From the IMG/VR virus record IMGVR_UViG_3300044476_000134, positions 1 through 33,624 of that record: a DNA stretch of 33,624 nucleotides; one strand, 5' to 3'. Position numbers and translations under genes: made by a program. This document shows, piece by piece, positions 2,570 through 31,742 of the stretch. Position 1 is the first letter of the stretch. Each line of letters opens with the position of its first letter. This stretch comes from a virus (taxonomy: Duplodnaviria > Caudoviricetes). A model generated the notes under the pieces. It saw only the letters and a list, made by a program, of their open reading frames with translations. It did not search any database and was not told the origin of the DNA.

Positions 2570-3649
2570 ATGAAAAAAATAAATGAATTAAAATCCGAAC
2601 GTTCTACTTTAATTTCACAAATGGAAGAAATTCTTAAAAATGAAACCGTTAGTGAAGAACAACGTTCAACATGGAATCTTCATGATGCAAAAGTTAAAGA
2701 AATTTCAACTGAAATTGAAACTCTTGAACGTCAAGAAGCTTTAAATAAACTCAATGTAGATACATTAGATAATGTTCCTACAATTGCAAGAAAACCTATT
2801 GGTGAATCATTCAGAGAATGGCTTAATATGTCAGTTGATAATGGTGGAAAAGGACCAAGTTTCAGAGCAGATCCTATCATCACAAGTACAGATTCTACTG
2901 TTATAAATAAAGTAGTTGCTAATAGTGTTGATATTCTTAAGTCACCTGCTGAAGCATTCCTTAAAGAACTTGGTATCACATTTTATACTGGATTAACTAA
3001 CACTTTAGTTCTTCCTTATATGGCTGAAGACACAGCAGCGTTCCCTGGAGAAAATACTCAAGCTGCATCTGCTAATATGGCAACTGCAAGTTTAACTCTT
3101 GCTCCAAGACGTGTATCTCATACACAATCAATTTCAAAAGAAACACTTGTTCAAACAAATCCTGCAATTTATGCTTCTATTTTACAAAATCTTTATGATG
3201 GTATTTGGAATGCTGTTGCAAACGATGTGTTTGATACAATTCAAACTGATGCGCCTGCTCAAGTTCAAACAGCTGGTATTACTTATGCTGCTATCGCTGC
3301 AATGGAAGCTTCTTTAGCTTACACCAATATTGGTACAGTTAAATATGTTACAACTCCTGCAAACAAAGCAACTCTTAAAGTAACTGCTAAAATGGCAAAT
3401 CAAGCTCCTATTTGGGATGTTGATAATAAAGTTCTTGGCTATCCTGCATACGGTGTACCTGCAGCTAATGCAGCACAAATGTATATGGGAGACTTCTCAC
3501 GTGCGGTTATTGGTCAATGGGGTGGTGTAGAAATCATAGTTGATCCTTATACTTCAGCCGCAAATGGACTTATTAAACTTACTGTTATTGGTATGTTTGA
3601 TACTGGAATTGTTAATCCTAAAGCAATGGTTTGGAAAGCTTCTGCATAA
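2570..3649 (+). CDS. Major capsid protein, HK97 fold, with N-terminal coiled-coil delta domain
   Basis: Follows the protease; helical N-terminus; LTLAPRRVS, LGYPAY, GDFSRAVIGQWGGVEIIVDPYT. Confidence 0.9.
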   Translation: MKKINELKSERSTLISQMEEILKNETVSEEQRSTWNLHDAKVKEISTEIETLERQEALNKLNVDTLDNVPTIARKPIGESFREWLNMSVDNGGKGPSFRADPIITSTDSTVINKVVANSVDILKSPAEAFLKELGITFYTGLTNTLVLPYMAEDTAAFPGENTQAASANMATASLTLAPRRVSHTQSISKETLVQTNPAIYASILQNLYDGIWNAVANDVFDTIQTDAPAQVQTAGITYAAIAAMEASLAYTNIGTVKYVTTPANKATLKVTAKMANQAPIWDVDNKVLGYPAYGVPAANAAQMYMGDFSRAVIGQWGGVEIIVDPYTSAANGLIKLTVIGMFDTGIVNPKAMVWKASA

Positions 3650-3676: not shown

Positions 3677-4561
3677 ATGAAAAATATAAATGAAAAACCA
3701 ACTTTTCGTGATTGGTTAAAAGAATCAGTAGAAGAAGGAAGACAAGCAACTTACCGTGCCGATCCTATACTTTCAAATACTGATACTACAGTTATCGAAA
3801 AGCAAGTATTTGCTGGTGTTGATGTTTTAACATCACCAGGTGAGGCTTTCTTACGTCAATTAGGTGTAACATTCTATCCTGGTCTTGTTGGAAACTTTGT
3901 AGTTCCAAGTATGGCTGAAAGTACTGCTAAATTTGTAACTGAAACTCAAAATGCTTCAACAGCTAACTTAGCAACAACTTCTATTACATTGGCTGCAAGA
4001 CGTGTATCTCATACACAATCAATTTCTAAGGAAACTCTTGCACAAACATCACCTGCTATTTACAATTCAATTGTACAGAATCTTGTTGATGGTCTTTGGA
4101 ATTGTGTAACTAATGACTTGTTCGATCAAGTACGTGCAGATTGTACAAGTACTAATGAAGTTAACATTTTAACTACTTCATTAAACTTTACACATTTAGT
4201 TAATATGGAAGCTTCTATTGGAGGTTTGATGCTTGCAAAACCTGCTTATGTAACTACTCCTGCAGTTGGTGCTTATCTTAAAACTCTTCCTAAATTAACC
4301 AACCAAGTTGGTGTTTATGAAGATGATAAGATTAATGGTTATCCTGCATATGCAGTTCCTGCACAAAATGCTAACGTTGTTACATTTGGTGACTGGTCTA
4401 GAGCATGCGTAGGTCAATGGGGCCCAATTTCTATAATTGTTGATCCATTTACTTCTGCAAAATCAGGTCTCATCAATTTAACTATTGAAGGATTATTCGA
4501 TACTGGAGTTTATAACAAACTTGGATTTACTAATCGTATCGACGTATCAGCTGGAAGATAA
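3677..4561 (+). CDS. Second capsid-protein paralog lacking most of the delta domain
   Basis: Colinear with 2570..3649 (RADPI, SPxEAFL, RRVSHTQSISKETL, GYPAY, GQWG..IIVDP, G.FDTG). Confidence 0.88.
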   Translation: MKNINEKPTFRDWLKESVEEGRQATYRADPILSNTDTTVIEKQVFAGVDVLTSPGEAFLRQLGVTFYPGLVGNFVVPSMAESTAKFVTETQNASTANLATTSITLAARRVSHTQSISKETLAQTSPAIYNSIVQNLVDGLWNCVTNDLFDQVRADCTSTNEVNILTTSLNFTHLVNMEASIGGLMLAKPAYVTTPAVGAYLKTLPKLTNQVGVYEDDKINGYPAYAVPAQNANVVTFGDWSRACVGQWGPISIIVDPFTSAKSGLINLTIEGLFDTGVYNKLGFTNRIDVSAGR

Positions 4562-11559: not shown

Positions 11560-14519
11560 TGGCAATTGATATTAGACAATATAGTTTATTACCTGTAAGA
11601 AGAGATAAACAAAATCACCCAGGAAGTACAGCAGGAATAAGTGCTGCTGGTGGAGGTAGTAGTTCAAGTTCTTCAGTATCTGGTACATTTTTACCAATAT
11701 ACAAAGATAGTTCAGTAATGATATATTGGGAATCGAGTACTAATTCTGTTAGATTTTCTGCTAATGTTTTTGCAGATGGAGAAGTTGCAGCATGGACTGC
11801 AGCACCTACATCACCATCTTGGTTAAGTGGTTTAATGCATGAAGTTTCATTTGGTCCTAAATTTAGTTGGTCAGGTGGATATTTAACATATCCTGAATAT
11901 TTAAGAGAATCTTCATTAGGAACTGGATTTACTTGGAATGGTGTGACTAGTAAATACGATGTAAGTGGTGGTGGCGGAACTGGTGATGTTACTAAAGCTT
12001 ATGTTGATGGTAGTTTATCAACAAGAGATACTTCAATATACAATTTAGGAGTTAAAAATTCTAATCAAGACACTTCTCTTAATTCAATATGGACTAAATT
12101 AGGTTCTGTAGACACTTCATTAAATAATTTAGGTGTAAAGAACACCAATCAAGATACGTCTTTAAATAATTTAGGTATAAAGAATGCTAACCAAGACACT
12201 TCACTTAATTCAATATGGACTAAATTAGGTTCAGTAGACACTTCATTAAATAAAACATTACAAAAAAATAGTACAAATACTGCTTTTGTAATGACTCTTC
12301 CTATGAATACACAGGATGCATCATTATTATTTTATTATGAAGTTTCAACAAATGCTTTAAGAGTAAATGCTAACCTATATGCTTCAGGAGAAGTTGCAGC
12401 ATTTACAGCAGTACCTACTGTTCCAAACTGGAGTGCAGGATTTATGAAAGAAGCTTCATTTGGTCCTAAGTTCAGTTGGGTAGGAGGCTACTTAGATGTA
12501 TGTACAGGCGCAGGTAGTGGTTCTCAATGGATTACTTCAGGAAGTAATATTTATTATGATACAGGTAATGTTGGTATTGGAACTATTACACCTACATTCC
12601 CACTTTCATTTGCTGCAACTACAGGCGATAAAATAGCCTTGTATGATAATAATGCAGGAATACAATATGGGTTTGGCATTCAATCGAATTTATTACAAAT
12701 ATATTGTGATACTGCAACAGATAGGGTAGGCATAGGCTATGGAACCAGCGGATCATTTACTGAAACACTTACAGTAAAAGGAACAAATGTAGGTATTGGC
12801 GAAACTGCTCCTAATAGAATGTTTGTTGTTAATTCAGCATCTAATCAAGTTGCAAAAATTACCAACGGTTATTATAACAGAGGAATTGAATTAGGTGTTA
12901 CAGCAGATTCAATGTCTTATATACAAGGAGTGATTCACAATTCAGATGCTCCTTACTATCTAAATCTTAATCCAAATGGATATGGTGTAGCGATAGGTAA
13001 AACAACAAATGCTACTGCAATGCTTGATGTTGCAGGATATGTGAGATTTGCTTCATCAGCAGGTACATATCCTTGGGAACTTCGTACATCAGCAGGTGCA
13101 AATGAAATGTATCTGTATGAGATGACCGGGTCTACTGGTCCAAAATTAACACTAACTTCAGGAGGACAGCTACAATTAAGTGCAACAACAGGAACAGCTC
13201 CCATTTCTGTTTCATCTACAACAGTATGTCCTAACCTTAATGCCGCTATGGTTGATGGATATGGAGCAAGTTCATTAGCAAAAAGATACTCTGCAACAGT
13301 GACTCTTTCATCTACCTATGCAAAAATCGCACGTATTTATGGTGGAGGATTAGCTTCTGGATACAGAGTTTCTTTCACTGGAACAGGTGATAGTATTGTT
13401 GTAAATGCTGTTGCTGATATACTTGTAAATCACTATAAAGATATAACAATAAAGTCATTTTCAGGGGCATACTCAACAGTGACACTTAGAATTACTTCTG
13501 ATGATAATTCAGATCATTATCTTGAAGCCAAAATTAACTCTGCAAACTCTTCTCCAATTATTTGTGTTGTAATGCCATTTGGTGCTGAAACAGTAATAAT
13601 GACTCCGGCTTCAGTTTCAGGAAGTTCAGTATTAGAACACGTTTGTAGTAGACAAAAACTTGCAATCTCAAATTATGATGGAGATGGAGGAACAGTAGGA
13701 GGAATTACATCAACAGGAAAAATTGCAGTTACCTATGCTGATTTAGAGTTTGGACAGTGGATACATACTACTACTGGAAACACCTATCTTGATAATACTA
13801 AAGATGATAGTAGTTATAAGTTGTTCTTAAGGATGAGAACAAATGGAACTCCTTTATATGCATTTACAGCCTGTGGTACTGGTTATAATGGAGTTGGTAC
13901 TGACTCCCCTACATATCCTTTTCACGTTTATGCTACACCAACAGACAGAGGAATCGCCTGTTTAACAGGAGCGGGTACAGCAGGTACTTATTTACAGCTT
14001 GATGAAGCAGGAATCAAAGGTTGGGCTATTGGAATGGACAATGGAAGTTCTACTTTTAGGATAAAAGAAGATTCTTATGCAGGTACAACAGCATTTTCAA
14101 TAGCAGTAGGAGGAGTCGCCACCTTTGCACAAAACATAATTGCAAACGCAAACATAAATTGCTATGGCGAAGTAACTGCTTATTATTCTTCTGATGAAAG
14201 ACTTAAAACTAATATCAAATCATTCACTGCCTTAGACATTATCAAAAAACTTCCTTCTGCAAAAACCTATAAATGGAATGAAAAAGCTGTTAGTCTTAAT
14301 CCTGCAAAAGATACATCAACACAACAATATGGACTTATTGCACAAGAAGTTTTAAAAACAAATCCTGAACTGGTACATAAGATATATGAAGATTATCTAA
14401 GTATTGATTACGTGCAACTTATACCTATTCTTTTACAAGGTATGAAAGAACTTAATACTAAAGTTAATAATCTTGAAAAGGAACTTAATTATTATAAAAA
14501 TGAACGATATGGTTTATAA
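11559..14519 (+). CDS. Tail fibre with internal repeats and C-terminal intramolecular chaperone (peptidase S74-like)
   Basis: Likely start MAIDIRQ at the TAATG overlap; DTSLN heptad repeats; GNVGIGT repeats; SDERLKTNI...YGLIAQEV...IDYVQLIPIL. Confidence 0.88.
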   Translation: MAIDIRQYSLLPVRRDKQNHPGSTAGISAAGGGSSSSSSVSGTFLPIYKDSSVMIYWESSTNSVRFSANVFADGEVAAWTAAPTSPSWLSGLMHEVSFGPKFSWSGGYLTYPEYLRESSLGTGFTWNGVTSKYDVSGGGGTGDVTKAYVDGSLSTRDTSIYNLGVKNSNQDTSLNSIWTKLGSVDTSLNNLGVKNTNQDTSLNNLGIKNANQDTSLNSIWTKLGSVDTSLNKTLQKNSTNTAFVMTLPMNTQDASLLFYYEVSTNALRVNANLYASGEVAAFTAVPTVPNWSAGFMKEASFGPKFSWVGGYLDVCTGAGSGSQWITSGSNIYYDTGNVGIGTITPTFPLSFAATTGDKIALYDNNAGIQYGFGIQSNLLQIYCDTATDRVGIGYGTSGSFTETLTVKGTNVGIGETAPNRMFVVNSASNQVAKITNGYYNRGIELGVTADSMSYIQGVIHNSDAPYYLNLNPNGYGVAIGKTTNATAMLDVAGYVRFASSAGTYPWELRTSAGANEMYLYEMTGSTGPKLTLTSGGQLQLSATTGTAPISVSSTTVCPNLNAAMVDGYGASSLAKRYSATVTLSSTYAKIARIYGGGLASGYRVSFTGTGDSIVVNAVADILVNHYKDITIKSFSGAYSTVTLRITSDDNSDHYLEAKINSANSSPIICVVMPFGAETVIMTPASVSGSSVLEHVCSRQKLAISNYDGDGGTVGGITSTGKIAVTYADLEFGQWIHTTTGNTYLDNTKDDSSYKLFLRMRTNGTPLYAFTACGTGYNGVGTDSPTYPFHVYATPTDRGIACLTGAGTAGTYLQLDEAGIKGWAIGMDNGSSTFRIKEDSYAGTTAFSIAVGGVATFAQNIIANANINCYGEVTAYYSSDERLKTNIKSFTALDIIKKLPSAKTYKWNEKAVSLNPAKDTSTQQYGLIAQEVLKTNPELVHKIYEDYLSIDYVQLIPILLQGMKELNTKVNNLEKELNYYKNERYGL

Positions 14520-15138
14520 AGTATATATGACAATAAACAATCTCGACACAAAGAAGTGTTATGTTGGGATGACAGGTAGATTAGATACTAACTATAAAGG
14601 TAGTGGCACTTATATACGTAGAGCTTTTAAGAAATACGGAATTAACAATTTTGTTCGTATTGATTTAGGAGAATTTCAAAACAAAGACGAAGCTCATTAT
14701 TGGGAAGGTTTTTATATAAAGCTTTATAAAACTGAGGTTAAGTATAATGGATATAACATAAGTCCTAAAGGAGGACTTGGTGCGTATAATGATTGTTTAT
14801 CTGAAGATACAAAACAAAGAATTAGTCAAAAATTAAAAGGCAGACATAGCGGAATTAAACCAATGTTAGGAAAGCATCATTCTATTGAAACTAAAATAAA
14901 AATTAAGGAATCTAATATAGGTAAATCAAAAAATAAAGGATGTAAACATACAGAAGAACATATAGAAAAACAACGAAGTAGTATGATTGGCAAAAACTTA
15001 AATAATAAATCAAAAACTGGTAAAAAAGATTCATCTGAAACTTTATTGAAAAAAAGTGATTCCGGAAAAACTGCTTGGATAAAAAGAAAACAAAAATTAA
15101 CTAAATGTAAAAATGAGCAAAGTTATTTCGAAATATAG
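14500..15138 (+). CDS. Free-standing GIY-YIG homing endonuclease with NUMOD3-like repeats
   Basis: KVYMTIN...CYVGMT, YKGSG, AFKKYG, GYNISPKGG, then GKHHSIETKIKI and GCKHTEEH repeats. Confidence 0.9.
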   Translation: MNDMVYKVYMTINNLDTKKCYVGMTGRLDTNYKGSGTYIRRAFKKYGINNFVRIDLGEFQNKDEAHYWEGFYIKLYKTEVKYNGYNISPKGGLGAYNDCLSEDTKQRISQKLKGRHSGIKPMLGKHHSIETKIKIKESNIGKSKNKGCKHTEEHIEKQRSSMIGKNLNNKSKTGKKDSSETLLKKSDSGKTAWIKRKQKLTKCKNEQSYFEI

Positions 15139-19635: not shown

Positions 19636-19995
19636 CTAAAAATTCCATATTTTACTATTCAATCTTGTTTTTCGTGCTGATGATATGTCTTTATAAAGTA
19701 TTCTCCATTCTTTAGCAAAGGCATTTTTTATTACTTGTGTAAAATATGCAAATGCATTAACTGATTTCTCAGGATCAAATCCCCTAAAATATAAAAAACA
19801 ATCTATAATAGCTTGTTGTATACAATCTTGTCTATCTTCTTCTTGAATATATGAAAATTTCCTTGACAATCTTGTAGACATTAATGTAAACATTTGAATT
19901 GCTTCATTTGAAATTTTATCATTTTCTTTACACCTAATTATTTCATTACAAAGTTCCTTATTACTTAAGTAACCTTTTTTTTCGTTATTTACCAT
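19636..19995 (-). CDS. T4 gp55-like late sigma factor, compact (119 aa)
   Basis: YLSNKEL, RLSRKFSY, FDPEKSVNAFAYFTQVIKNAF match recalled gp55-family motifs (YVNNKEL; FDPEKSxNPFAYFTQ...AF). Confidence 0.82.
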   Translation of the reverse strand: MVNNEKKGYLSNKELCNEIIRCKENDKISNEAIQMFTLMSTRLSRKFSYIQEEDRQDCIQQAIIDCFLYFRGFDPEKSVNAFAYFTQVIKNAFAKEWRILYKDISSARKTRLNSKIWNF

Positions 19996-23862: not shown

Positions 23863-24084
23863 TCATTTTTCTACGAGTGTTTTATATTTCCTATAGTGAA
23901 TTTCTTCCTGTTCAGGCGTTAAGGCCCTTATGTACTTTCGCATTTCAATATTGCGCATCATAGACATCAATTTGATGTATTCCTCTTCCGGTTGCTTTAT
24001 GAGCCACGGAATAAACTTTGTAATGTGTATCTTGGGATATACATTACGTTGTCTATACAAACTAAATAAAACATTTGGTTTCAT
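23863..24084 (-). CDS. Hypothetical protein
   Basis: 4-nt overlap with the upstream gene. Confidence 0.55.
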   Translation of the reverse strand: MKPNVLFSLYRQRNVYPKIHITKFIPWLIKQPEEEYIKLMSMMRNIEMRKYIRALTPEQEEIHYRKYKTLVEK

Positions 24085-24377
24085 TTCTTTGGCTTTTCAA
24101 AAGTGGAAACAAGTTTATTCAGGCAATCCTGCCTGATGCTCTCATAATCACGCTTAAACGTGGATACAACAAGTTCAGCCTCTTTTCTGTTATAGAAAAC
24201 ATTGTGGCCAATTTTGATTGCATCGAACTCCCACAGTTCATTGACTGAAGCAAGTTGCTTCTGAACAGTAGTAACACCGACTTTATGCAAATCAGAAAGA
24301 TGCTTTGCATTGACAAACTCAATATCATCTATTTGGATGATGTTAGTTGTCCTAATCATTTTTGCTTTTTTAATCAT
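24081..24377 (-). CDS. Excisionase/MerR-like winged-HTH DNA-binding protein
   Basis: FVNAKHLSDLHKVGVTTVQKQL...IKIGHNVFYNRKE; start placed after the structured leader. Confidence 0.5.
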   Translation of the reverse strand: MIKKAKMIRTTNIIQIDDIEFVNAKHLSDLHKVGVTTVQKQLASVNELWEFDAIKIGHNVFYNRKEAELVVSTFKRDYESIRQDCLNKLVSTFEKPKK

Positions 24378-24394: not shown

Positions 24395-24453
24395 CTGAGA
24401 CTGTTCTCATTGTAAGAATGCGGGAATCGAACCCGCATTAACCATTATTCTTA
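24395..24453 (-). ncRNA. Mini tRNA-mimic element A plus downstream hairpin
   Basis: AAGAAT-AATGGTTAAT-GCGGG TTCGATT CCCGC-ATTCTT-ACAA-TGAGA ACAG TCTCA-G. Confidence 0.7.
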
Positions 24454-24681
24454 ATTTCCGCCATGTTGCGAACACTTTCCATTTTGACTATATGTCATGT
24501 GTTTGCAACGATTACCTGTGGATTTTGCAGTTGCCGAACATTGCACACTTGTACTTCTTTTAGTAGAAGCTGTAGTTTCTGTTTTAGTTGATACTTTAGT
24601 ACTATCAACTTTTTGCTTATCCTGTGCAAATAAGGATGTCGACAATAAAGCGACGCAAATAATTAAAAACATCTTTTTCAT
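24451..24681 (-). CDS. Secreted small protein with C-terminal CCCH motif
   Basis: Signal MKKMFLIICVALLSTSLFA-Q; CSATAKSTGNRC...CSQH. Confidence 0.65.
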   Translation of the reverse strand: MKKMFLIICVALLSTSLFAQDKQKVDSTKVSTKTETTASTKRSTSVQCSATAKSTGNRCKHMTYSQNGKCSQHGGN

Positions 24682-24699
24682 AATTAAGTTATTTAATAT

Positions 24700-24757
24700 C
24701 TGGCAATATTGCCATTGTAGGGAAGCGGGAATCGAACCCGCATTAACCATTTTCCCT
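24700..24757 (-). ncRNA. Mini tRNA-mimic element B plus downstream hairpin
   Basis: AGGGAA-AATGGTTAAT-GCGGG TTCGATT CCCGC-TTCCCT-ACAA-TGGCAATATTGCCA-G. Confidence 0.7.
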
Positions 24758-24763
24758 TGCCTT

Positions 24764-24952
24764 TCACTGGTTACAATTTGCTGGTTGCACGTAAAATAAC
24801 TTTTTATAAGTCATATAAGGTTTTGTAGTTTTTTTAGCAAACCACAATTTAGTTGTAAGATTACCATGTTGTTTAGGTGGCTTAACCTTTTTGGTTGAAG
24901 CACAAGATAAACAACAAAGCAAAATGAGCAAAAGAGTAATCATACGTTTCAT
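24764..24952 (-). CDS. Small basic lipoprotein
   Basis: MKRMITLLLILLCCLS-CAST lipobox. Confidence 0.6.
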   Translation of the reverse strand: MKRMITLLLILLCCLSCASTKKVKPPKQHGNLTTKLWFAKKTTKPYMTYKKLFYVQPANCNQ

Positions 24953-25917
24953 TTCATATTCATATCATTGATTGCAGGAAACCATGCCTCATAATTAACA
25001 TCAAATTGTGAAGATGTTATAAAGGTAACACGTATTGTAGTATTAGGCTTCCAAATAAGAGAAGGAGGTAGTGCACTTGAATAGTCCTTTAACCATGCAA
25101 CTGTTTTTGATGGACTAGCCGCACCAGCACTAAAATCAATACCAATAAATGTAGCATAAGCTGCTATAAATGAAACGTTTCCATATCCTAATTGCCTTGA
25201 TGCCCATAAAGATGCTCCTGGTATTGTATAACCATAAAAAACATTAACAGTTGGTGTACCATCATAAAATAATGTTTTTATTGCAACTGGTGGTAATTCA
25301 ATAATTTCATCAAATGTTAACAACGAATTCATTGAATTGGTTTTAGCAATTTGAGGAACCCATGTACTAGTTCCACCCATATCAAATAATACACATGCAT
25401 AATCCGTAGTCACATTCAATTGGCATGTTGAAGCACCAACAACATTAAAAACTACCGGACCTGGTGTGTAAAATGGAGCTTTGTCAAGTATTTCATATGG
25501 AGCACCAATCGTAGGAACTGAATAAAAAGGTTCAGTTAATGATGCTTGCCTTACACCTGTTAAAATATCATTAGTAGGCATAACATAAACATTATAAGTA
25601 CCAACAGGAAGATCCAAAGTTGGTGGACTATATGTTATTGTTTCATCATCTCCATTTGTAATTGGTATATCAGCAACCCATGTATCCGTTGTTGTGTTAA
25701 TACGAATAATGTGATTAAAATACTTATGAGTAAACTCCGCATTACCTTTGCCTTTATTCTTATTATTTTTAAGCCAAGGTACTACATCTCCATGCATAGT
25801 AGCAGAAAATGTAATTGGAAACTTCAATGTCGAATGAGGAATGACATCTTTCTTACAACTGCTCAACATGAGCAAAAGTAAACCAGTGAAAAGCAAACCA
25901 TAAATTAAGTTTTTCAT
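24949..25917 (-). CDS. Surface lipoprotein, paralog of the N-terminal half of 26042..27949
   Basis: MKNLIYGLLFTGLLLLMLSS-CKKD signal; shared VPW..GKG..F.H.Y..HI.RI, WVADIP and WL.DY motifs. Confidence 0.75.
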   Translation of the reverse strand: MKNLIYGLLFTGLLLLMLSSCKKDVIPHSTLKFPITFSATMHGDVVPWLKNNKNKGKGNAEFTHKYFNHIIRINTTTDTWVADIPITNGDDETITYSPPTLDLPVGTYNVYVMPTNDILTGVRQASLTEPFYSVPTIGAPYEILDKAPFYTPGPVVFNVVGASTCQLNVTTDYACVLFDMGGTSTWVPQIAKTNSMNSLLTFDEIIELPPVAIKTLFYDGTPTVNVFYGYTIPGASLWASRQLGYGNVSFIAAYATFIGIDFSAGAASPSKTVAWLKDYSSALPPSLIWKPNTTIRVTFITSSQFDVNYEAWFPAINDMNMK

Positions 25918-25937
25918 AATGAAAAAGAATTGATTAT

Positions 25938-25995
25938 CTGGCATATGCCATTGTTATCATTATGGGAATCGAACCCAAATAAACCATTATGATAA
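25938..25995 (-). ncRNA. Mini tRNA-mimic element C plus downstream hairpin
   Basis: TATCAT-AATGGTTTAT-TTGGG TTCGATT CCCATA-ATGATA-ACAA-TGGCATATGCCA-G. Confidence 0.65.
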
Positions 25996-25999
25996 AAAT

Positions 26000-26024
26000 A
26001 AAAAGGGGGAGAATTTCTCCCCCT
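26000..26024 (-). terminator. Rho-independent terminator
   Basis: AGGGGGAGA/TCTCCCCCT stem followed by Ts on the minus strand. Confidence 0.75.
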
Positions 26025-26041
26025 AGTTTTAAAGATTAAAA

Positions 26042-27949
26042 TTAATTATGAGTTGGTTTTACAAAAGTTACAGTACTTGTTTGTGTACCATTTGTAACTA
26101 CACATGTAATACTCCAAGTTCCATCAGCAGTATATTGTCCTGCTGCATTTCTAACTGTTACATTTCTTGATGTTGATGAACCATCAATATATGCAGTAGG
26201 AGTACTAATATTAGAACCTTGTATATTTGTAAGAGTCCATGCATAAGTTGTTCCAACTGGTGGTGTAGTACTATTAACATCAATAGTTAAATTAGCTGTT
26301 CCATCCATATTAGAAAATCCATTAGTATTAATTGATGCATTAAATGGAGTAGGAACAACTGCATAAGAACCTGAAACTGATTGACCAAGTGCATCAGATA
26401 CTTTACAATAATATGTACCTTGTATACCACCATGATTATAAGATGCAGTACTTCCAATTTTATTAGTCATTAATGCATCAGAATACCATGCATAAGTATA
26501 TGCAACTAAATCATAACCACCAGTTGAACTAGCAGTAACAACATTATCAACATTTACAAAGTTGATAGATGTCATATCATGATTAGGTGATGCCATACCA
26601 TTAGAAATAGTATAATGTCCATGTACGTCAGTTACTTTAGCATAATGAGTTCCACTTGCAAGAGGAGCACCTATTAAACCCTCAACCTGAATTGAATTAT
26701 AAGTATCAGGAATAGTAGCTGCCGCATCTTTCCACCATGTTATAGTTAATGGTGCAGTTCCACCAGCAACAGTTGCTTCCAATGTCCAATCAGTTGGAGT
26801 TGGTTGAGTATTTGCTATACTAATTGTAAGTGGTTCTTCAGGAACAGCAATGTCTCCATCTACAATATCAATACCGGTGCCAAACCATGTAAGTCTTTCA
26901 GTTGAAAAGTTAAGTGTTCCTACTGAATATTTAACTCTGATTACCATGTTGGCTTTCAAAGTTCCATCATTCCAATAGTCTCTCAACCAAATAGCAGGCA
27001 TTGTTGTAGGAGCAGTTTCATTACCAAACCTTAGGTAGGTTGATTTTACAATAGGATCAAACATATGTACTCCAGGTAAGTTATTCTGTTCTTTAAGACC
27101 AGGAACAAAATACTGGAAATACTGCTGATTGGTTACATCTTCAGAAACCTGCTGTAATTGTGTACCATCCTGTACATCAAACGCGTTTAATTCAGCATAA
27201 GTTAATGAATGTGGAGCAACCGATGATCCAGTTAAATAGGAATTATCCAATACAAATTGGAGTAATGGTTCTCCTACTCCTGCATTATCATACTGCCAAT
27301 CAGGATTACCAAGGTCAAGCAACATAAGAGCCTGTCTGGTAAACATTTTTAACGGTACTGTCTGACCTGCAGTTGAAATAATTGCAAAAGGAACATTATT
27401 TGATTCAAACGATGCATACTCATATGTTTGATCCATTGCATCATTCTCAACATAATACTCATCAAATGGTATTTGTTCTTCTGGTACATTGGATGTTGCA
27501 TAATGCAAAGTTGGATTTAATGCTGTCCATGCTTCTGCTGACATGTCTACCGGCAATACTCTTGCCTGATAATTACCTTTCGGCAGTTTATGGGAATAAG
27601 CATCAGTTCCTGTTCCATTTGCAAATTGTGGAAGGAGCGGAATGTCCGCTACCCAACGTCCTGGATCAATTGACCAGGCTCCATTCCCGGATATTATCCT
27701 AAGAATGTGGCCGGCATACCTGTGTGAGAATGTGAATGATCCGTCTCCTTTACCGGATCCATTAGGTTTAGCATTCCAAGGCACAGTTTCACCATTTAAC
27801 GTTGGACTAAAAGCCACATCAACGAGAGTACCATCATCAACAGGACCAATGGGTGGATAATCGATGTCTTTTTTACACCCTGTGAACATTAACGATAGTG
27901 TCATCGCGATGAGCATTAAGCTCCTTCCAAAAAGATTTACTCTTTTCAT
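26042..27949 (-). CDS. Large surface lipoprotein with C-terminal SprB/PKD-like Ig repeats (adhesin-like)
   Basis: LMFTG-CKKD lipobox; GGTAPLTITW, YTYAWY...GTYYCKVSDALG and TTYAW repeats. Confidence 0.75.
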   Translation of the reverse strand: MKRVNLFGRSLMLIAMTLSLMFTGCKKDIDYPPIGPVDDGTLVDVAFSPTLNGETVPWNAKPNGSGKGDGSFTFSHRYAGHILRIISGNGAWSIDPGRWVADIPLLPQFANGTGTDAYSHKLPKGNYQARVLPVDMSAEAWTALNPTLHYATSNVPEEQIPFDEYYVENDAMDQTYEYASFESNNVPFAIISTAGQTVPLKMFTRQALMLLDLGNPDWQYDNAGVGEPLLQFVLDNSYLTGSSVAPHSLTYAELNAFDVQDGTQLQQVSEDVTNQQYFQYFVPGLKEQNNLPGVHMFDPIVKSTYLRFGNETAPTTMPAIWLRDYWNDGTLKANMVIRVKYSVGTLNFSTERLTWFGTGIDIVDGDIAVPEEPLTISIANTQPTPTDWTLEATVAGGTAPLTITWWKDAAATIPDTYNSIQVEGLIGAPLASGTHYAKVTDVHGHYTISNGMASPNHDMTSINFVNVDNVVTASSTGGYDLVAYTYAWYSDALMTNKIGSTASYNHGGIQGTYYCKVSDALGQSVSGSYAVVPTPFNASINTNGFSNMDGTANLTIDVNSTTPPVGTTYAWTLTNIQGSNISTPTAYIDGSSTSRNVTVRNAAGQYTADGTWSITCVVTNGTQTSTVTFVKPTHN

Positions 27950-27982
27950 TTTATTTAATGAATTAAGTTATGCCGCAATATT

Positions 27983-28030
27983 GACGGCGACCTCATTTTC
28001 TGGTTTCTGCATTAGCTTCTTCAGGCCGTC
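27983..28030 (-). ncRNA. Type I hammerhead ribozyme candidate
   Basis: GACGGC-CTGAAGA-AGC TAAT GCA-GAAAC-C AGAAAATGA G-GTC^GCCGTC: full core and 6-bp stem I; stems II and III are minimal. Confidence 0.65.
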
Positions 28031-28033
28031 TGT

Positions 28034-28081
28034 AAAAAAAAATAGAATGGGCGCTATTCTGGTTAAATAGAACGCCCATTC
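28034..28081 (-). terminator. Rho-independent terminator
   Basis: GAATGGGCG...CGCCCATTC stem followed by a long T-run on the minus strand. Confidence 0.8.
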
Positions 28082-28118
28082 CTGAAAACTTTCAACGAAT
28101 GTTGAAACTAAAACTGTA

Positions 28119-28322
28119 TCATATACTTGGCATTGACTTTATTAAATTTTGTTTAATAACTTCCATCATGCCAATTGTTTCGTATGGTGTATCACATGCC
28201 ATAATTGCTATACTAATAATGCACGAATATGCAAAATCATGTATTTCGTCAGGATCATCCAGCAATTCTATATGTTTTTTAATTGCATCTGTCCATTCTT
28301 CAGTTCCAGATATTTTTGCCAT
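28119..28322 (-). CDS. Hypothetical protein
   Basis: 67 aa; AATATATA just upstream (28326-28333, minus strand). Confidence 0.55.
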   Translation of the reverse strand: MAKISGTEEWTDAIKKHIELLDDPDEIHDFAYSCIISIAIMACDTPYETIGMMEVIKQNLIKSMPSI

Positions 28323-28506
28323 TTTTATATATTTTTTAGTTAATTTTTCGCCCGAACTCTGTCATTCAGTAAACTGCTGTATTTTTTTCCAACTTCGAAA
28401 CACAGTGCCCATCAATCGTTACTGTTTTTTCGCCGGCTTGCAAAACTGCTACGAAACAGCAAAATGCACCTAAGAAAAGGCACCATGTTTACATCGAAAA
28501 AAATGC

Positions 28507-28537
28507 AAAAAAAGGTGGTGAGTTTTCATCACCACCT
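28507..28537 (-). terminator. Rho-independent terminator
   Basis: AGGTGGTGA/TCACCACCT stem followed by a T-run. Confidence 0.75.
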
Positions 28538-28544
28538 ATGTTGG

Positions 28545-28724
28545 CTATAATCGCCATACAAAAGGAATGCCATATTTTATCCACAACCATGTGATTAGTG
28601 CGATAATGGCAATCTTTATGGCGATTACCATAAAGATTGAACCGATAACAATACCTAATAAAGTATCGCCACCCTTAGATTTCTGAGGTGCCTTACCACC
28701 TGGAATAAAATCATTCGCTTTCAA
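28545..28724 (-). CDS. Small membrane protein (59 aa, TTG start, not in the ORF track)
   Basis: ...LLGIVIGSIFMVIAIKIAIIALITWLWIK...; ends just before a terminator. Confidence 0.5.
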   Translation of the reverse strand: MKANDFIPGGKAPQKSKGGDTLLGIVIGSIFMVIAIKIAIIALITWLWIKYGIPFVWRL

Positions 28725-28917
28725 TCATATCCATAATCATGGATTTACATCCTAAGTAGAATTCCCATTCCCATGATGGGATTTGGTCACGAACATATCC
28801 ATCGATATCCTCGATGTCAATGTCAAGTTTGAATAAACCATCATAAACGATGTCATGCAAACGCATTATTTCAGATTTAATCTTTCCCATTTTAGTTAAG
28901 ATTAATGAACCAATCAA
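28711..28917 (-). CDS. Hypothetical protein (start may be MGKIK)
   Basis: In the minus-strand gene string. Confidence 0.55.
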   Translation of the reverse strand: MIGSLILTKMGKIKSEIMRLHDIVYDGLFKLDIDIEDIDGYVRDQIPSWEWEFYLGCKSMIMDMIESE

Positions 28918-29028
28918 TGCGTTGATTATCTTTCGTTATGAATAACAGAAACCAACGATTTCCGTCTTTGAGTTCCATCCCCTCAACAATTTTGAGGGGT
29001 TCATAAGTGTACTCAGGCATGGTTTCAA

Positions 29029-29511
29029 TTATTTCTTACCTTTACCTTTTCCTTTTTTCTCTTCGGAATCTTTTGGAGCCATGTTGTTGTCAGAATACTC
29101 GGTTTCATTTTCGAGATCTTCTTCACTAACACCGGCAGCATTTAAGGCGGCTTTTATTGCAATGGCCTCATCTTCAGTTGGAATCAAATCCTCAAGTGTA
29201 ATGCCCATCAAATCAAGTGTTGATTGTATTTCAACTCTTTTTGATTTCGGCATCATCACCTTAAGTTTTTTCGAAACCTCGATGAATTCATTTTTTAATG
29301 CTTCAACCTTTGCGTCGGTTTGTTCACTGGCACCAATAAGTGCAATCGCTTTGGTAATTGCCCTTAATTCCTGTGGAATTTTGTAACGTCTAACCTGGAG
29401 GTCATAAGATTTGGAACGATCAGTTCCATTGATAACCTTAAGAACTCTAACGTTTGTGTCGTTTTCAACATTCTCACTAAGCCATTCTGTAACAGTTTTG
29501 AAAGTTTTCAT
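29029..29511 (-). CDS. Hypothetical helical protein, paralog 1
   Basis: Start MKTFKTVTEW after the tRNA-like leader; aligns with 30322..30597. Confidence 0.7.
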   Translation of the reverse strand: MKTFKTVTEWLSENVENDTNVRVLKVINGTDRSKSYDLQVRRYKIPQELRAITKAIALIGASEQTDAKVEALKNEFIEVSKKLKVMMPKSKRVEIQSTLDLMGITLEDLIPTEDEAIAIKAALNAAGVSEEDLENETEYSDNNMAPKDSEEKKGKGKGKK

Positions 29512-29529
29512 TTGTATAAGTATTAATAA

Positions 29530-29623
29530 CTGAGCAACATCGCTCATTGTGAAGGAGGTTGGTTTCGCACCCACATCTATGAACTGCCCAACATTGGGTT
29601 CATTTCATTCTTGGACCTCCCTC
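29530..29623 (-). ncRNA. Degenerate full-size tRNA-like element D plus downstream hairpin
   Basis: GAGGGAG/CTCCTTC stem, ATGAAC/GTTCAT arm, GTGGG TGCGAAA CCAAC T-arm, then ACAA-TGAGC GATGTT GCTCA-G. Confidence 0.55.
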
Positions 29624-29946
29624 TATAACTTAATTTGTAAATCTACTTTCATAGTCGATGCGATTACCTCGTTACCAAATCTTTTTTGTATCTCCAACTG
29701 GTGCATGATTCACATCATTCTAGGTCATTGGAGCGCGATTCTTACTACTTCATTGATGATGTACTCGACATCTTCGTTCGCATCTCTCGGCTTTTTGTTA
29801 GGGGTTATTCAATAGATGGGTAAGTTTGTCATCGTTATCACTTACATTAGCCATCATCCGATTTTGATTCGTGGCCCTTACTTTATTCGCCTTGTACTCT
29901 CTACATCCTTGCCCACACCGCGAAGAAGGAGGAAGAGAACCAACCA

Positions 29947-29957: not shown

Positions 29958-30279
29958 TTAATAATATAATTATTAATATATAAATATAATAATAATAATT
30001 AACAATATATTATTTGTTAAAAATCATTTTTTAAAAGTTATTAACAATTACTTTATCACGATTGTTAACAACTTTCTCATTTTCCGGTCGAAAAGCGACT
30101 GCTCGAAAACATTTGATACTTTTTCGGGATTTCGAAACTCAGTGCTGAGCAATCGTCGCAGTATTACAGGTCACTGGCAAAACGCAGTGATGCGGTTCGC
30201 ACATTCCGCATATATGACAAATTGTCATATTATTTAAATATTAATATATTTAAATAGCTGAATATGTTGACATAATGAC

Positions 30280-30308
30280 AAAAAAAAACCGGTTTTTCAA
30301 CCGGTTTT
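30280..30308 (-). terminator. Rho-independent terminator
   Basis: AAAACCGGTT/AACCGGTTTT stem followed by a T-run after the 30322 gene. Confidence 0.7.
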
Positions 30309-30321
30309 GAGGTGTCGAGGG

Positions 30322-30597
30322 TCATTTTTTAATTTTGTGCATTCCCCTTGATTTAGGAACGAACTGCTTGAGGGCCTTCGCGTTTAATTCGAATTGCTGT
30401 TTGAGGAGAGCCAGTTCAGAATCATCGAGAAGGAGTTTTTTCGCATTTTCGATTTTTCTCAATTTCTGATTAAGGTAATACTGTTCAACTCGCAGTTCGT
30501 GGGTGACGTTCCGGTTAATCGCTTTAAGGATTATTTCCTGAGATTTGGCACTCGGGTTAGAATCGACCCATTCCTGAATAGATGTGAAAGTTTTCAT
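30322..30597 (-). CDS. Hypothetical helical protein, paralog 2
   Basis: Start MKTFTSIQEW; aligns with 29029..29511. Confidence 0.7.
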   Translation of the reverse strand: MKTFTSIQEWVDSNPSAKSQEIILKAINRNVTHELRVEQYYLNQKLRKIENAKKLLLDDSELALLKQQFELNAKALKQFVPKSRGMHKIKK

Positions 30598-30669
30598 TTT
30601 TTTAATTTTTAAGTTTTCGAATTTGAATTCCTCTCGGGTGACCCGATGAGGTTTGTGCTTATTCCAGAG

Positions 30670-30683
30670 TGTCAAAGAACGCA
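30670..30683 (-). promoter_or_regulatory. boxA-like antitermination site
   Basis: TGCGTTCTTTGACA followed by the CCTC-A-TCGGG TCA CCCGA-GAGG hairpin. Confidence 0.55.
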
Positions 30684-30921
30684 TAATTAATTAATAATTA
30701 TATTTAAATATAAAACTTTTTTATTAATTAAAAAAATTTTTTATAATTATTTTCACAGTAACTGTGATGAATCGACACCCGAGTTTAATTAACTATAAAA
30801 TAAAAATATAATATATTACTGATATCAGTAAAAGATGTCTCAAGCGTTTTGTCCCGCGCCCGCGTAATATAATAAAAAAAATTCATATAAAAAAATATTT
30901 CATCATTTATTTTCATAAAAG

Positions 30922-30953
30922 TTATTAACAATTTTATTAACAGTTTATTAACA
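30922..30953 (+). repeat. Three tandem TTATTAACA boxes (DnaA-box-like or iterons)
   Basis: Copies at 30922, 30934 and 30945; another at 30038; variant TTGTTAACA at 30062. Confidence 0.6.
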
Positions 30954-31294
30954 TATACAGATATTTAAATATATTAATAATATGACATAATGACACAGCT
31001 GCTGATGACACATTGTCATGGACGCTGGAGGACTGCGGGCGAATGGATTTTTTTACTGTTGATTTTTAACAGTAACAGACTGGGTATGCCATACATGGTT
31101 AGGAAATGATAGGGATTACCGATCCCTAGATGGCCGCCTCCACAATTTTCTTAATAACAGATGTTCCTAAACTGAATACCTGTAATCCCTTAACAGTTTT
31201 TTAATTCATATTTAATTAATTCTTAACACCCTTAACAAATATTTAACATCGCACGATTATATAAAATACGTAAAAGAATATATAGATTATAAAA

Positions 31295-31710
31295 GTTTGA
31301 GTGATACATCAGTCCTGTATGCAGGATAGGCCAAACATACTCAATGGGAATATCCAAGTCCCGAACAACACACTGATAGGCACCCCGCAGGAAGATCGCA
31401 AGTCTTCTGTATGTGGCAGAGAGCCTCGAGAACTCTCTGCCATTGTGAAGGGTAGTTATAGTACATCATCGTAAAAATACCAGGCAACGGCAATTAGCAA
31501 GATAACGACCTGGACCTACAAACCGAAAGGATGCCTTACAAGCTTACGATGCCGCAAGGGACGGGACACTTGTACATAGCTCGGGGTTAAGTTGGTGCAT
31601 GCTTATGTAAACTTAATCCATACTATAAATAGAGAGCGATAGACACTGCTTGATAAAACAAGAATGATGTGTCTATACTATTTGTAGGGATAGGCTTGCT
31701 ACGCCGTTTT
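31295..31710 (+). ncRNA. Large structured noncoding RNA candidate (~410 nt)
   Basis: GC-enriched tract with no ORF in the track, after AATATATA at 31277; more than ten helices, GNRA loops and two crossing pairings. Confidence 0.75.
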
Positions 31711-31718
31711 GATTATAG

Positions 31719-31736
31719 AATATATACTAAAATAAA
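31719..31736 (+). promoter_or_regulatory. AATATATACTAAAATAAA motif before terS
   Basis: Identical to the copy at 7572. Confidence 0.72.
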
Positions 31737-31742
31737 GATAGC

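Follow-up and report, generated by a model that had tools for sequence, protein, structure and literature searches.

Four short elements lie between genes on the minus strand of a phage genome, within positions 24,395 to 29,623 of the 33,624-nucleotide (nt) IMG/VR virus record IMGVR_UViG_3300044476_000134 (hereafter the window, meaning the whole stretch at that length), and the locus raises the question of what these elements do. A first-pass annotation had read them as mimics of transfer RNA (tRNA) that punctuate an operon and provide mRNAs with a protective 5' hairpin. As judged by comparison of many copies, the elements are members of a real and widespread phage RNA motif which is uncatalogued (absent from Rfam). 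We consider it fairly probable that they serve as tRNA-punctuation signals, at which a cut by RNase P and then a cut on the 3' side would yield a downstream mRNA with a hairpin-protected start. All four elements (E1-E4) were located as described in the annotation, and the stem and hairpin pairs quoted there were correct. They share one layout, consisting of an acceptor stem, a short loop, a T-arm, ACAA, a TG..CA hairpin, a G, an AT-rich leader and an ATG. The bounds of the tRNA-like part (mini-tRNA) run from the acceptor 5' end to the discriminator A (A73), and R2 is the larger of the two covariance models introduced below.

24413..24452, minus strand: E1 mini-tRNA, 40 nt, with a 6-base-pair (bp) acceptor stem, AAUGGUU loop, 5-bp T-stem, UUCGAUU loop and A73; R2 score 51.4 bits
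24396..24412, minus strand: E1 trailer, CAA and a 5-bp hairpin; ATG at 24377
24718..24757, minus strand: E2 mini-tRNA, 40 nt; R2 score 50.7 bits
24701..24717, minus strand: E2 trailer, CAA and a 5-bp hairpin; ATG at 24681
25954..25994, minus strand: E3 mini-tRNA, 41 nt, with an AU-rich acceptor and a U-U mismatch in the T-stem; R2 score 46.0 bits
25939..25953, minus strand: E3 trailer, CAA and a 4-bp hairpin; ATG at 25917
25994..26024, minus strand: intrinsic-terminator-like hairpin and U-tract leading straight into E3
29550..29623, minus strand: E4, a long variant of 74 nt, with a 7-9-bp acceptor helix, AG linker, long internal hairpin, T-loop UGCGAAA (G55 type) and A73
29531..29549, minus strand: E4 trailer, CAA and a 6-bp hairpin; ATG at 29511

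The distance from ACAA to ATG is 32, 33, 33 and 35 nt in E1, E2, E3 and E4, respectively, and a sense-oriented open reading frame (ORF) follows each of the four. The T-arm sequence that three elements were said to have in common, GGTTCGATTCC, was found three times, the chance mean being 0.5 with one mismatch allowed. A descriptor combining the T-arm, 6-7 nt and ACRA, made post hoc from the elements themselves, had exactly four matches in the window, which were E1-E4, and no more than two in any of 500 dinucleotide shuffles. Two covariance models were used, R1 built from 18 sequences picked by eye and R2 from 91 sequences; E1-E3 scored 33-36 bits with R1 and 46-51 bits with R2, and E4 was missed by both. 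At 40-41 nt, E1-E3 are shorter than the mini-tRNAs of about 45 nt that had been predicted. When folded alone, E1 preferred an extended T-hairpin in which the AU-rich acceptor stem was absent, and the folding z-scores of whole elements were modest (-1.2 to -2.0). Thus, the support for the structure comes from covariation and not from folding energy.

The annotation had proposed a covariance model and a search of phage metagenomes as a check, and these recovered a widespread phage family, with no match in Rfam. An exact pattern (loop, T-arm, ACAA) gave at least 120 stretches in IMG/VR, and the matches listed included 93 non-redundant ones, 21 of which were called tRNA by ARAGORN at a relaxed setting. 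Acceptor pairing had been left out of the search pattern; 52 of the 72 non-tRNA hits among the matches listed nevertheless form an acceptor stem with 5 bp or more, compared to 399 of 5000 swapped pairs (8%). With a second pattern (the AACGG variant) such a stem was found in 35 of 43 hits. A pooled census of the fetched loci, from which 7 tRNAs were removed, comprised 160 distinct mini-tRNAs of 39-48 nt from Bacteroidota-type phages and actinophages; the family counts given here and below are not phylogenetically independent. Two to four copies each were carried by 12 of 45 virus records, many of which are fragments, and copies within one genome were sometimes near-identical. The elements are not confined to accessory genes, as in Mu-like Bacteroidota-type prophages copies precede a transposase-like gene and an ATPase gene as well as small early genes. 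In cultured actinophages the same fold, mostly ACGA-ended, occupies intergenic gaps. At E ≤ 0.05 the model matched Fowlmouth 10 times, VanLee 12 times, Predator 6 times and PSonyx twice, each set being on a single strand, and the copies of Fowlmouth, VanLee and Predator cluster in small-gene arms. Two gaps of halovirus HF2 contain a similar minihelix and hairpin by eye.

A search for long variants resembling E4 gave 16 stretches, of which the loci L292 and L294 were plausible by eye and the remainder were chance matches. In cellular genomes the motif was rare and mostly in a prophage-like context. The covariance model, with 50 candidates scored per genome, identified it in 1 of 121 genomes of a Bacteroides genus sample, among prophage-like genes. 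A pattern scan in a second family hit 1 of 61 genomes, the starting genome itself, and the exact-pattern scan of GTDB gave 8 stretches. One mini-tRNA copy (locus L124, 3000-3046, minus strand) occupies an apparently chromosomal place between housekeeping-type enzyme genes of a Porphyromonadaceae genome.

The dimensions of the family are those of the top half of a tRNA. Although 8-14 nt were allowed, the distance from the T-loop to the discriminator was 11-12 nt in 53 of 57 hand-picked copies; among the 61 census hits (two real tRNAs and two spurious hits included), for which 9-14 nt were allowed, it was 11-12 nt in 58. In the alignment fitted to R1, which leans toward the model for that reason, 99.5% of the cells were paired, changes on both sides were seen in 10 of 11 pairs, and G-U cells numbered 34 versus 5 mismatches. 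At one unfiltered pair, G-U occurred 11 times versus 3 for A-C. The G55 T-loops were collected by a scan that left the linker unspecified, and the linker in these mini-tRNAs (n = 26) was YAG in 23 and YGG in none. U55 mini-tRNAs that lack the original anchor motif (n = 31) had YGG in 27 cases and YAG in one. The Fisher test gave p ~1e-13 for this covariation, the sequences being related, a few mis-parsed and one a real tRNA. By inspection, E4 is of the G55/AG type. In the tRNA elbow the contacts described are G18-U55 and G19-C56 (PMC10424219). The aligned copies thus show joint variation of the short loop and the T-loop of the kind known from the tRNA elbow, GG occurring with U55 and AG with G55. 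This tertiary covariation, together with the preference for G-U, shows a fold of the sense-strand RNA and not a DNA site. Moreover, an acceptor/T-arm stack of tRNA dimensions, no canonical anticodon arm and a sense position beside a neighbouring RNA were found, and on these structural and positional grounds the elements are probable members of the t-elements.

To which host enzymes might such a fold be addressed? None of the 39 correctly placed gene starts in the window has a Shine-Dalgarno motif (of 42 positions surveyed, 3 proved to be something other than a start codon), and position -3 is enriched in A. The host is probably a member of the Bacteroidota, because of these starts without Shine-Dalgarno motifs, the A at -3 and the lipoprotein look-alikes. 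A sample of 36 distinct tRNA genes was read at 30 loci in three Bacteroidota genomes, which had 141 matches overall. C74 was encoded in all 36; the commonest trailer was CAA (14 genes) and CCA was rare (2 genes). At the level of gene sequence, the ACAA tail of the mini-tRNAs was thus shown to match the host-type pre-tRNA ends (A73-C74). RNase Z scored above the cut-off in all three genomes. Type A RNase P RNA was present in two of the three, and the GG of L15 was kept in the one inspected. For Bacillus subtilis, PMC1874595 describes a more than 100-fold contribution of C74 pairing to RNase P action, in vivo cutting of precursors without CCA, and an order in which RNase P precedes RNase Z on long leaders, RNase Z being poor until the 5' leader has been removed.

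The sequence that follows the mini-tRNA connects the fold to a gene start. A hairpin stands directly after the element in 20 of 24 ACGA-type copies. A scan for the T-arm followed by ACAATG and CAG gave 49 stretches, and a hairpin of 4-6 bp, whose inner pairs the scan left unspecified, was present with covarying inner pairs in 12 of 21 unique non-tRNA hits. An ORF starts within 80 nt in the sense direction in 65 of 69 copies and in the antisense direction in 28 of 69. In addition, a genuine tRNA-Arg gene (locus L330) and a genuine tRNA-Asn gene (locus L159) precede a CAA-hairpin-leader-ATG stretch that is nearly identical to that of a mini-tRNA copy of the same phage. Host enzymes cut real tRNAs out of their transcripts, so that the exchange of mini-tRNAs and genuine tRNA genes in this position provides the strongest indirect support for punctuation. 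It also suggests how the mini-tRNAs may have arisen, and they probably originated from phage tRNA genes that shed their anticodon and D arms.

We therefore favour an explanation in which the elements would be cis-acting mimics of the pre-tRNA top half, that is bacteriophage "t-elements", within long non-structural transcripts. RNase P would cut first and the 3' cut at 73/74 would come next. The downstream mRNA would then start with CAA, about three unpaired bases, and a hairpin slowing 5'-end-dependent decay, and the leaders do give a CAA and hairpin start when folded alone. The start codon would lie about 20 nt beyond the hairpin, with space for a ribosome. In this way the level and lifetime of chosen genes might be uncoupled from the remaining operon, and an RNA of about 40 nt would be released as a by-product. 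Thus, the tRNA-mimic part of the original proposal and its punctuation part with a protective 5' hairpin gain indirect support from secondary and tertiary covariation, the tRNA-length ruler, the A73-C74 ends and the real tRNAs in the same slot, the cleavage being a prediction.

Several findings weigh against tRNA punctuation. C74 may hinder RNase Z, and RNase J, which was searched for in the three Bacteroidota genomes, was above the cut-off in none. G+1 takes part in a G-C pair in just 81 of 160 copies. The hairpin after the element was present in 13 of 74 ACAA-type copies and absent in the other 61. The stop codon of the upstream gene was overlapped by 18 of the 104 copies with a near upstream ORF, including E1, whose bases 1-2 are the final two of an upstream TAA; because of the overlap, cutting by RNase P would deprive the upstream mRNA of its stop codon. 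Furthermore, 16 of 160 copies lie within long stop-free frames. E3 stands behind a terminator-like site with no evident promoter, and its transcription would therefore need read-through. At two loci with a related sigma gene the element is absent. In HF2, the published 5' end T-4384 (PMC8707807) falls, if the numbering matches, 9 nt inside the similar element (4375-4414), in the linker and off the predicted cuts. Cutting within a reading frame has a precedent in the t-elements of plant nad6 and ccmC (PMC1920247).

Some of these findings fit a one-sided cut, after which the mini-tRNA would stay attached to one of the two mRNAs as a stabilising cap, to the downstream one at its 5' end if only RNase P cuts, or to the upstream one at its 3' end if only the 3' cut is made. 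The 18 of 104 stop overlaps would agree with a 3'-only cut, the near-invariant C74 suits RNase P and may block RNase Z, and most ACAA copies have no extra hairpin. However, the hairpin occurs at a fixed spot after NCRA and is also found behind genuine tRNA genes, which need excision on both sides, and we regard a one-sided cut as rather unlikely.

An uncut fold that acts in translation, either as an elbow mimic binding the ribosome or as an aid to re-initiation past the upstream stop, appears improbable. Copies do occur right after upstream stops, and their spacing to the following start is narrow (32-35 nt in the window and a median of 36.5 nt in ACGA types), and the genes of the window are without Shine-Dalgarno motifs. 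However, an ordinary Shine-Dalgarno motif is kept in most ACGA-type copies (15 of 24), the distance to the ATG varies widely among ACAA copies, and the conserved A73-C74 and the 11-12-bp ruler are features that are read by processing enzymes.

Alternatively, the released mini-tRNA, once CCA-tailed, could work in trans, either decoying defence enzymes that target tRNA or competing with the processing of host tRNAs. As many as 10-12 copies per genome in early arms, the retention of the elbow and the acceptor end, and the copies without a nearby downstream ORF would all suit such a role. Nevertheless, a single gene would do for this purpose, yet the copies are tied to downstream starts; anticodon nucleases would not be decoyed because there is no anticodon arm, and G3-U70 was present in 2 of 160 copies. 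This makes a trans role quite improbable. Finally, DNA-level sites (cassette-recombination repeats, remnants of attachment (att) sites or promoters) or a put-like antiterminator are very improbable: E1 (24420-24446) and E2 (24725-24751) do share 27 identical bases as a direct repeat flanking one small gene of 76 amino acids (aa), near-identical copies can occur within a genome and in HF2 a different class of repeats between genes acts as promoters (PMC8707807), but the stems are free to vary in sequence while they keep pairing, the sense strand shows a preference for G-U and the short loop changes in concert with the T-loop. Moreover, the ORFs that were scanned gave no integrase, the Bacteroidota -7 promoter motif stands at none of the elements and E3 comes after its terminator, not before it. 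Recombination as the primary role, one of the options offered by the annotation, is unsupported.

Established classes were compared with the tRNA-punctuation signals as well. ARAGORN and Rfam reported no tRNA, transfer-messenger RNA (tmRNA) or family at cut-off in the window. A tRNA gene was rejected, since the D and anticodon arms of a cloverleaf are missing from the window elements. A tRNA-derived att site or cassette repeat was rejected as well: the stems differ between copies and still pair, and the scanned ORFs included no recognised integrase. A promoter was also rejected, in that 62 sigma-70-like sites were counted with 48.2 ± 7.1 expected, and no TAnnTTTG was seen at the elements.

A close likeness is to the t-elements of plant mitochondria. 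In Arabidopsis (cox1, ccmC, nad6, rps4, ccmFN1), RNase Z or RNase P acts on tRNA-like T-arm folds and so sets the 5' or 3' termini of mRNAs, real tRNA genes do the same job upstream of other genes, and some of the cuts are within reading frames (Forner et al. 2007, PMC1920247). Those described there are organellar and mostly cloverleaf-sized, whereas the phage fold is 39-48 nt long, multi-copy, followed by a fixed hairpin-leader and predicted to be cleaved. In a prokaryote, Haloferax volcanii, tRNase Z and RNase P act on a tRNA-like t-element upstream of 5S rRNA and thereby free the neighbouring RNA (PMC4326828); the element is described as a single rRNA-maturation signal of an archaeal host, in contrast to the phage element, which is repeated between protein genes and has a bacterial host-type NCRA tail. 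The mascRNA and menRNA of MALAT1 and MEN-beta are reduced tRNA mimics too, cut by RNase P and RNase Z so that a small RNA is freed, but as reported they belong to the 3' ends of mammalian long non-coding RNAs, in single copy and with no downstream start codon (PMC4919922). The tRNA-like domain of tmRNA (RF00023) has an acceptor and T-arm and a stemless mimic of the D-loop, and two members of the phage family scored 20-21 bits with its model. This is far below the cut-off of 47 bits; the phage elements have no tag reading frame or encoded CCA, G3-U70 is in 2 of 160 copies, and no tmRNA was found in the window. Host RNase P also processes the C4 antisense RNA of phages P1 and P7, which is a single trans-acting immunity RNA. 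C4/CI was rejected, as the Rfam C4 model matched neither the window (E ≤ 5) nor any of eight loci (E ≤ 1). In the early mRNAs of T7 and SPO1, repeated sites for the host nuclease RNase III segment the transcripts and stabilise the pieces, and these sites are long double-stranded hairpins, not tRNA mimics.

A description of a repeated tRNA-punctuation motif in bacteriophages was not found in the literature within scope, subscription papers and supplements lying outside it. The motif may be present, unnamed, in the large catalogues of candidate RNA structures that have been published for phages. Punctuation of mRNA by tRNA is established for organelles, and a tRNA-like signal for one archaeal rRNA; its proposed repeated use by bacteriophages appears to be new. 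The phages that carry the motif are unrelated, belong to at least two bacterial phyla by host and include lytic, temperate and Mu-like ones, and the motif represents a rare case of natural tRNA-elbow covariation. Because copies occur in the cultured phages Fowlmouth, Cuke, Predator, VanLee and PSonyx, whose laboratory hosts are harmless, the punctuation is directly testable. If confirmed, it would provide many new natural substrates of RNase P and RNase Z, explain part of early phage gene tuning, aid the annotation of gene starts and supply a 40-nt processing part for bacteria. A broader view, which we hold to be unlikely, is that of a portable cassette derived from tRNA genes and common to phages of Bacteroidota, Actinobacteria and haloarchaea, from which host RNase P and RNase Z would make hairpin-capped early mRNAs and also CCA-tailed mini-tRNAs of about 43 nt that would titrate tRNA-processing or tRNA-end-targeting defence enzymes; one element would then serve both gene expression and host takeover.

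The genome that carries E1-E4 is that of a siphovirus of about 33.3 kb and is complete, the final 360 bases being a copy of its start with 2 differences. Its rightward arm contains the genes for portal, HK97-type capsid, tail and terminase, the portal being at most about 32% identical to listed phages. The leftward arm (~19.6-29.6 kb) consists of small unknown genes, two lipoprotein-type ORFs, an FkbM methyltransferase and a T4 gp55-like sigma factor. When annotated phages were searched for a close relative of the element region, none was found. The window ORFs that were scanned or read include no recognisable integrase, polymerase, primase or helicase, yet the genome looks complete. The features of the leftward arm next to the elements, and the sigma factor gene, are as follows.

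24081..24377, minus strand: ORF of 98 aa downstream of E1, without a convincing family match
24451..24681, minus strand: signal-peptide-type protein of 76 aa, the gene flanked by the E1/E2 repeat; its Cys/His C-terminus is weakly HGGxSTG-like (below cut-off)
24949..25917, minus strand: lipoprotein-type ORF of 322 aa downstream of E3; look-alikes by features include Mfa2/FimB-type clusters (lead only)
26042..27949, minus strand: lipoprotein-type ORF of 635 aa upstream of E3, one stretch of which resembles Hoc-like decoration domains
29029..29511, minus strand: ORF of 160 aa downstream of E4, the first substantial gene of the leftward operon
19636-19995: T4 gp55-like sigma factor gene

E2 starts 6 nt past the stop of a 62-aa ORF (24764-24952), and the stop codon of a 27-codon ORF (29623-29706, minus strand) ends on base 1 of E4. 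No relatives of the 160-aa product were found when they were looked for among annotated phages. The two lipoprotein-type ORFs (24949-25917 and 26042-27949, minus strand) have a common CKK-type motif after the signal peptide and could encode host-surface or fimbrial-like proteins. As with E3, the element of locus L281 starts right where a terminator-like U-tract ends.

Elsewhere in the window, tandem HK97-type capsid-like genes were observed on the plus strand at 2570-3649 and 3677-4561, the second (294 aa) being shorter and below the family cut-off. A GIY-YIG/NUMOD3 homing endonuclease gene (14500-15138, plus strand) is inserted directly after the tail fibre gene. The long divergent region at ~29960-31740 is largely non-coding and contains repeated motifs of the TTAACA-N16/17-TAT type and a GC-richer stretch before the small terminase; Rfam gave no matches in this region and the folding signal was not strong. 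In PSonyx (L204, 15538-18628) a second repeated intergenic hairpin motif, which is not tRNA-like, occurs between early genes. Lastly, several phages carry a separate class of degenerate tRNA-like genes of about 85-90 nt that have kept the acceptor stem and T-arm around an odd middle, and these were seen near the match in L033, L037, L049, L052, L074, L083, L093-L097, L107 and L119.

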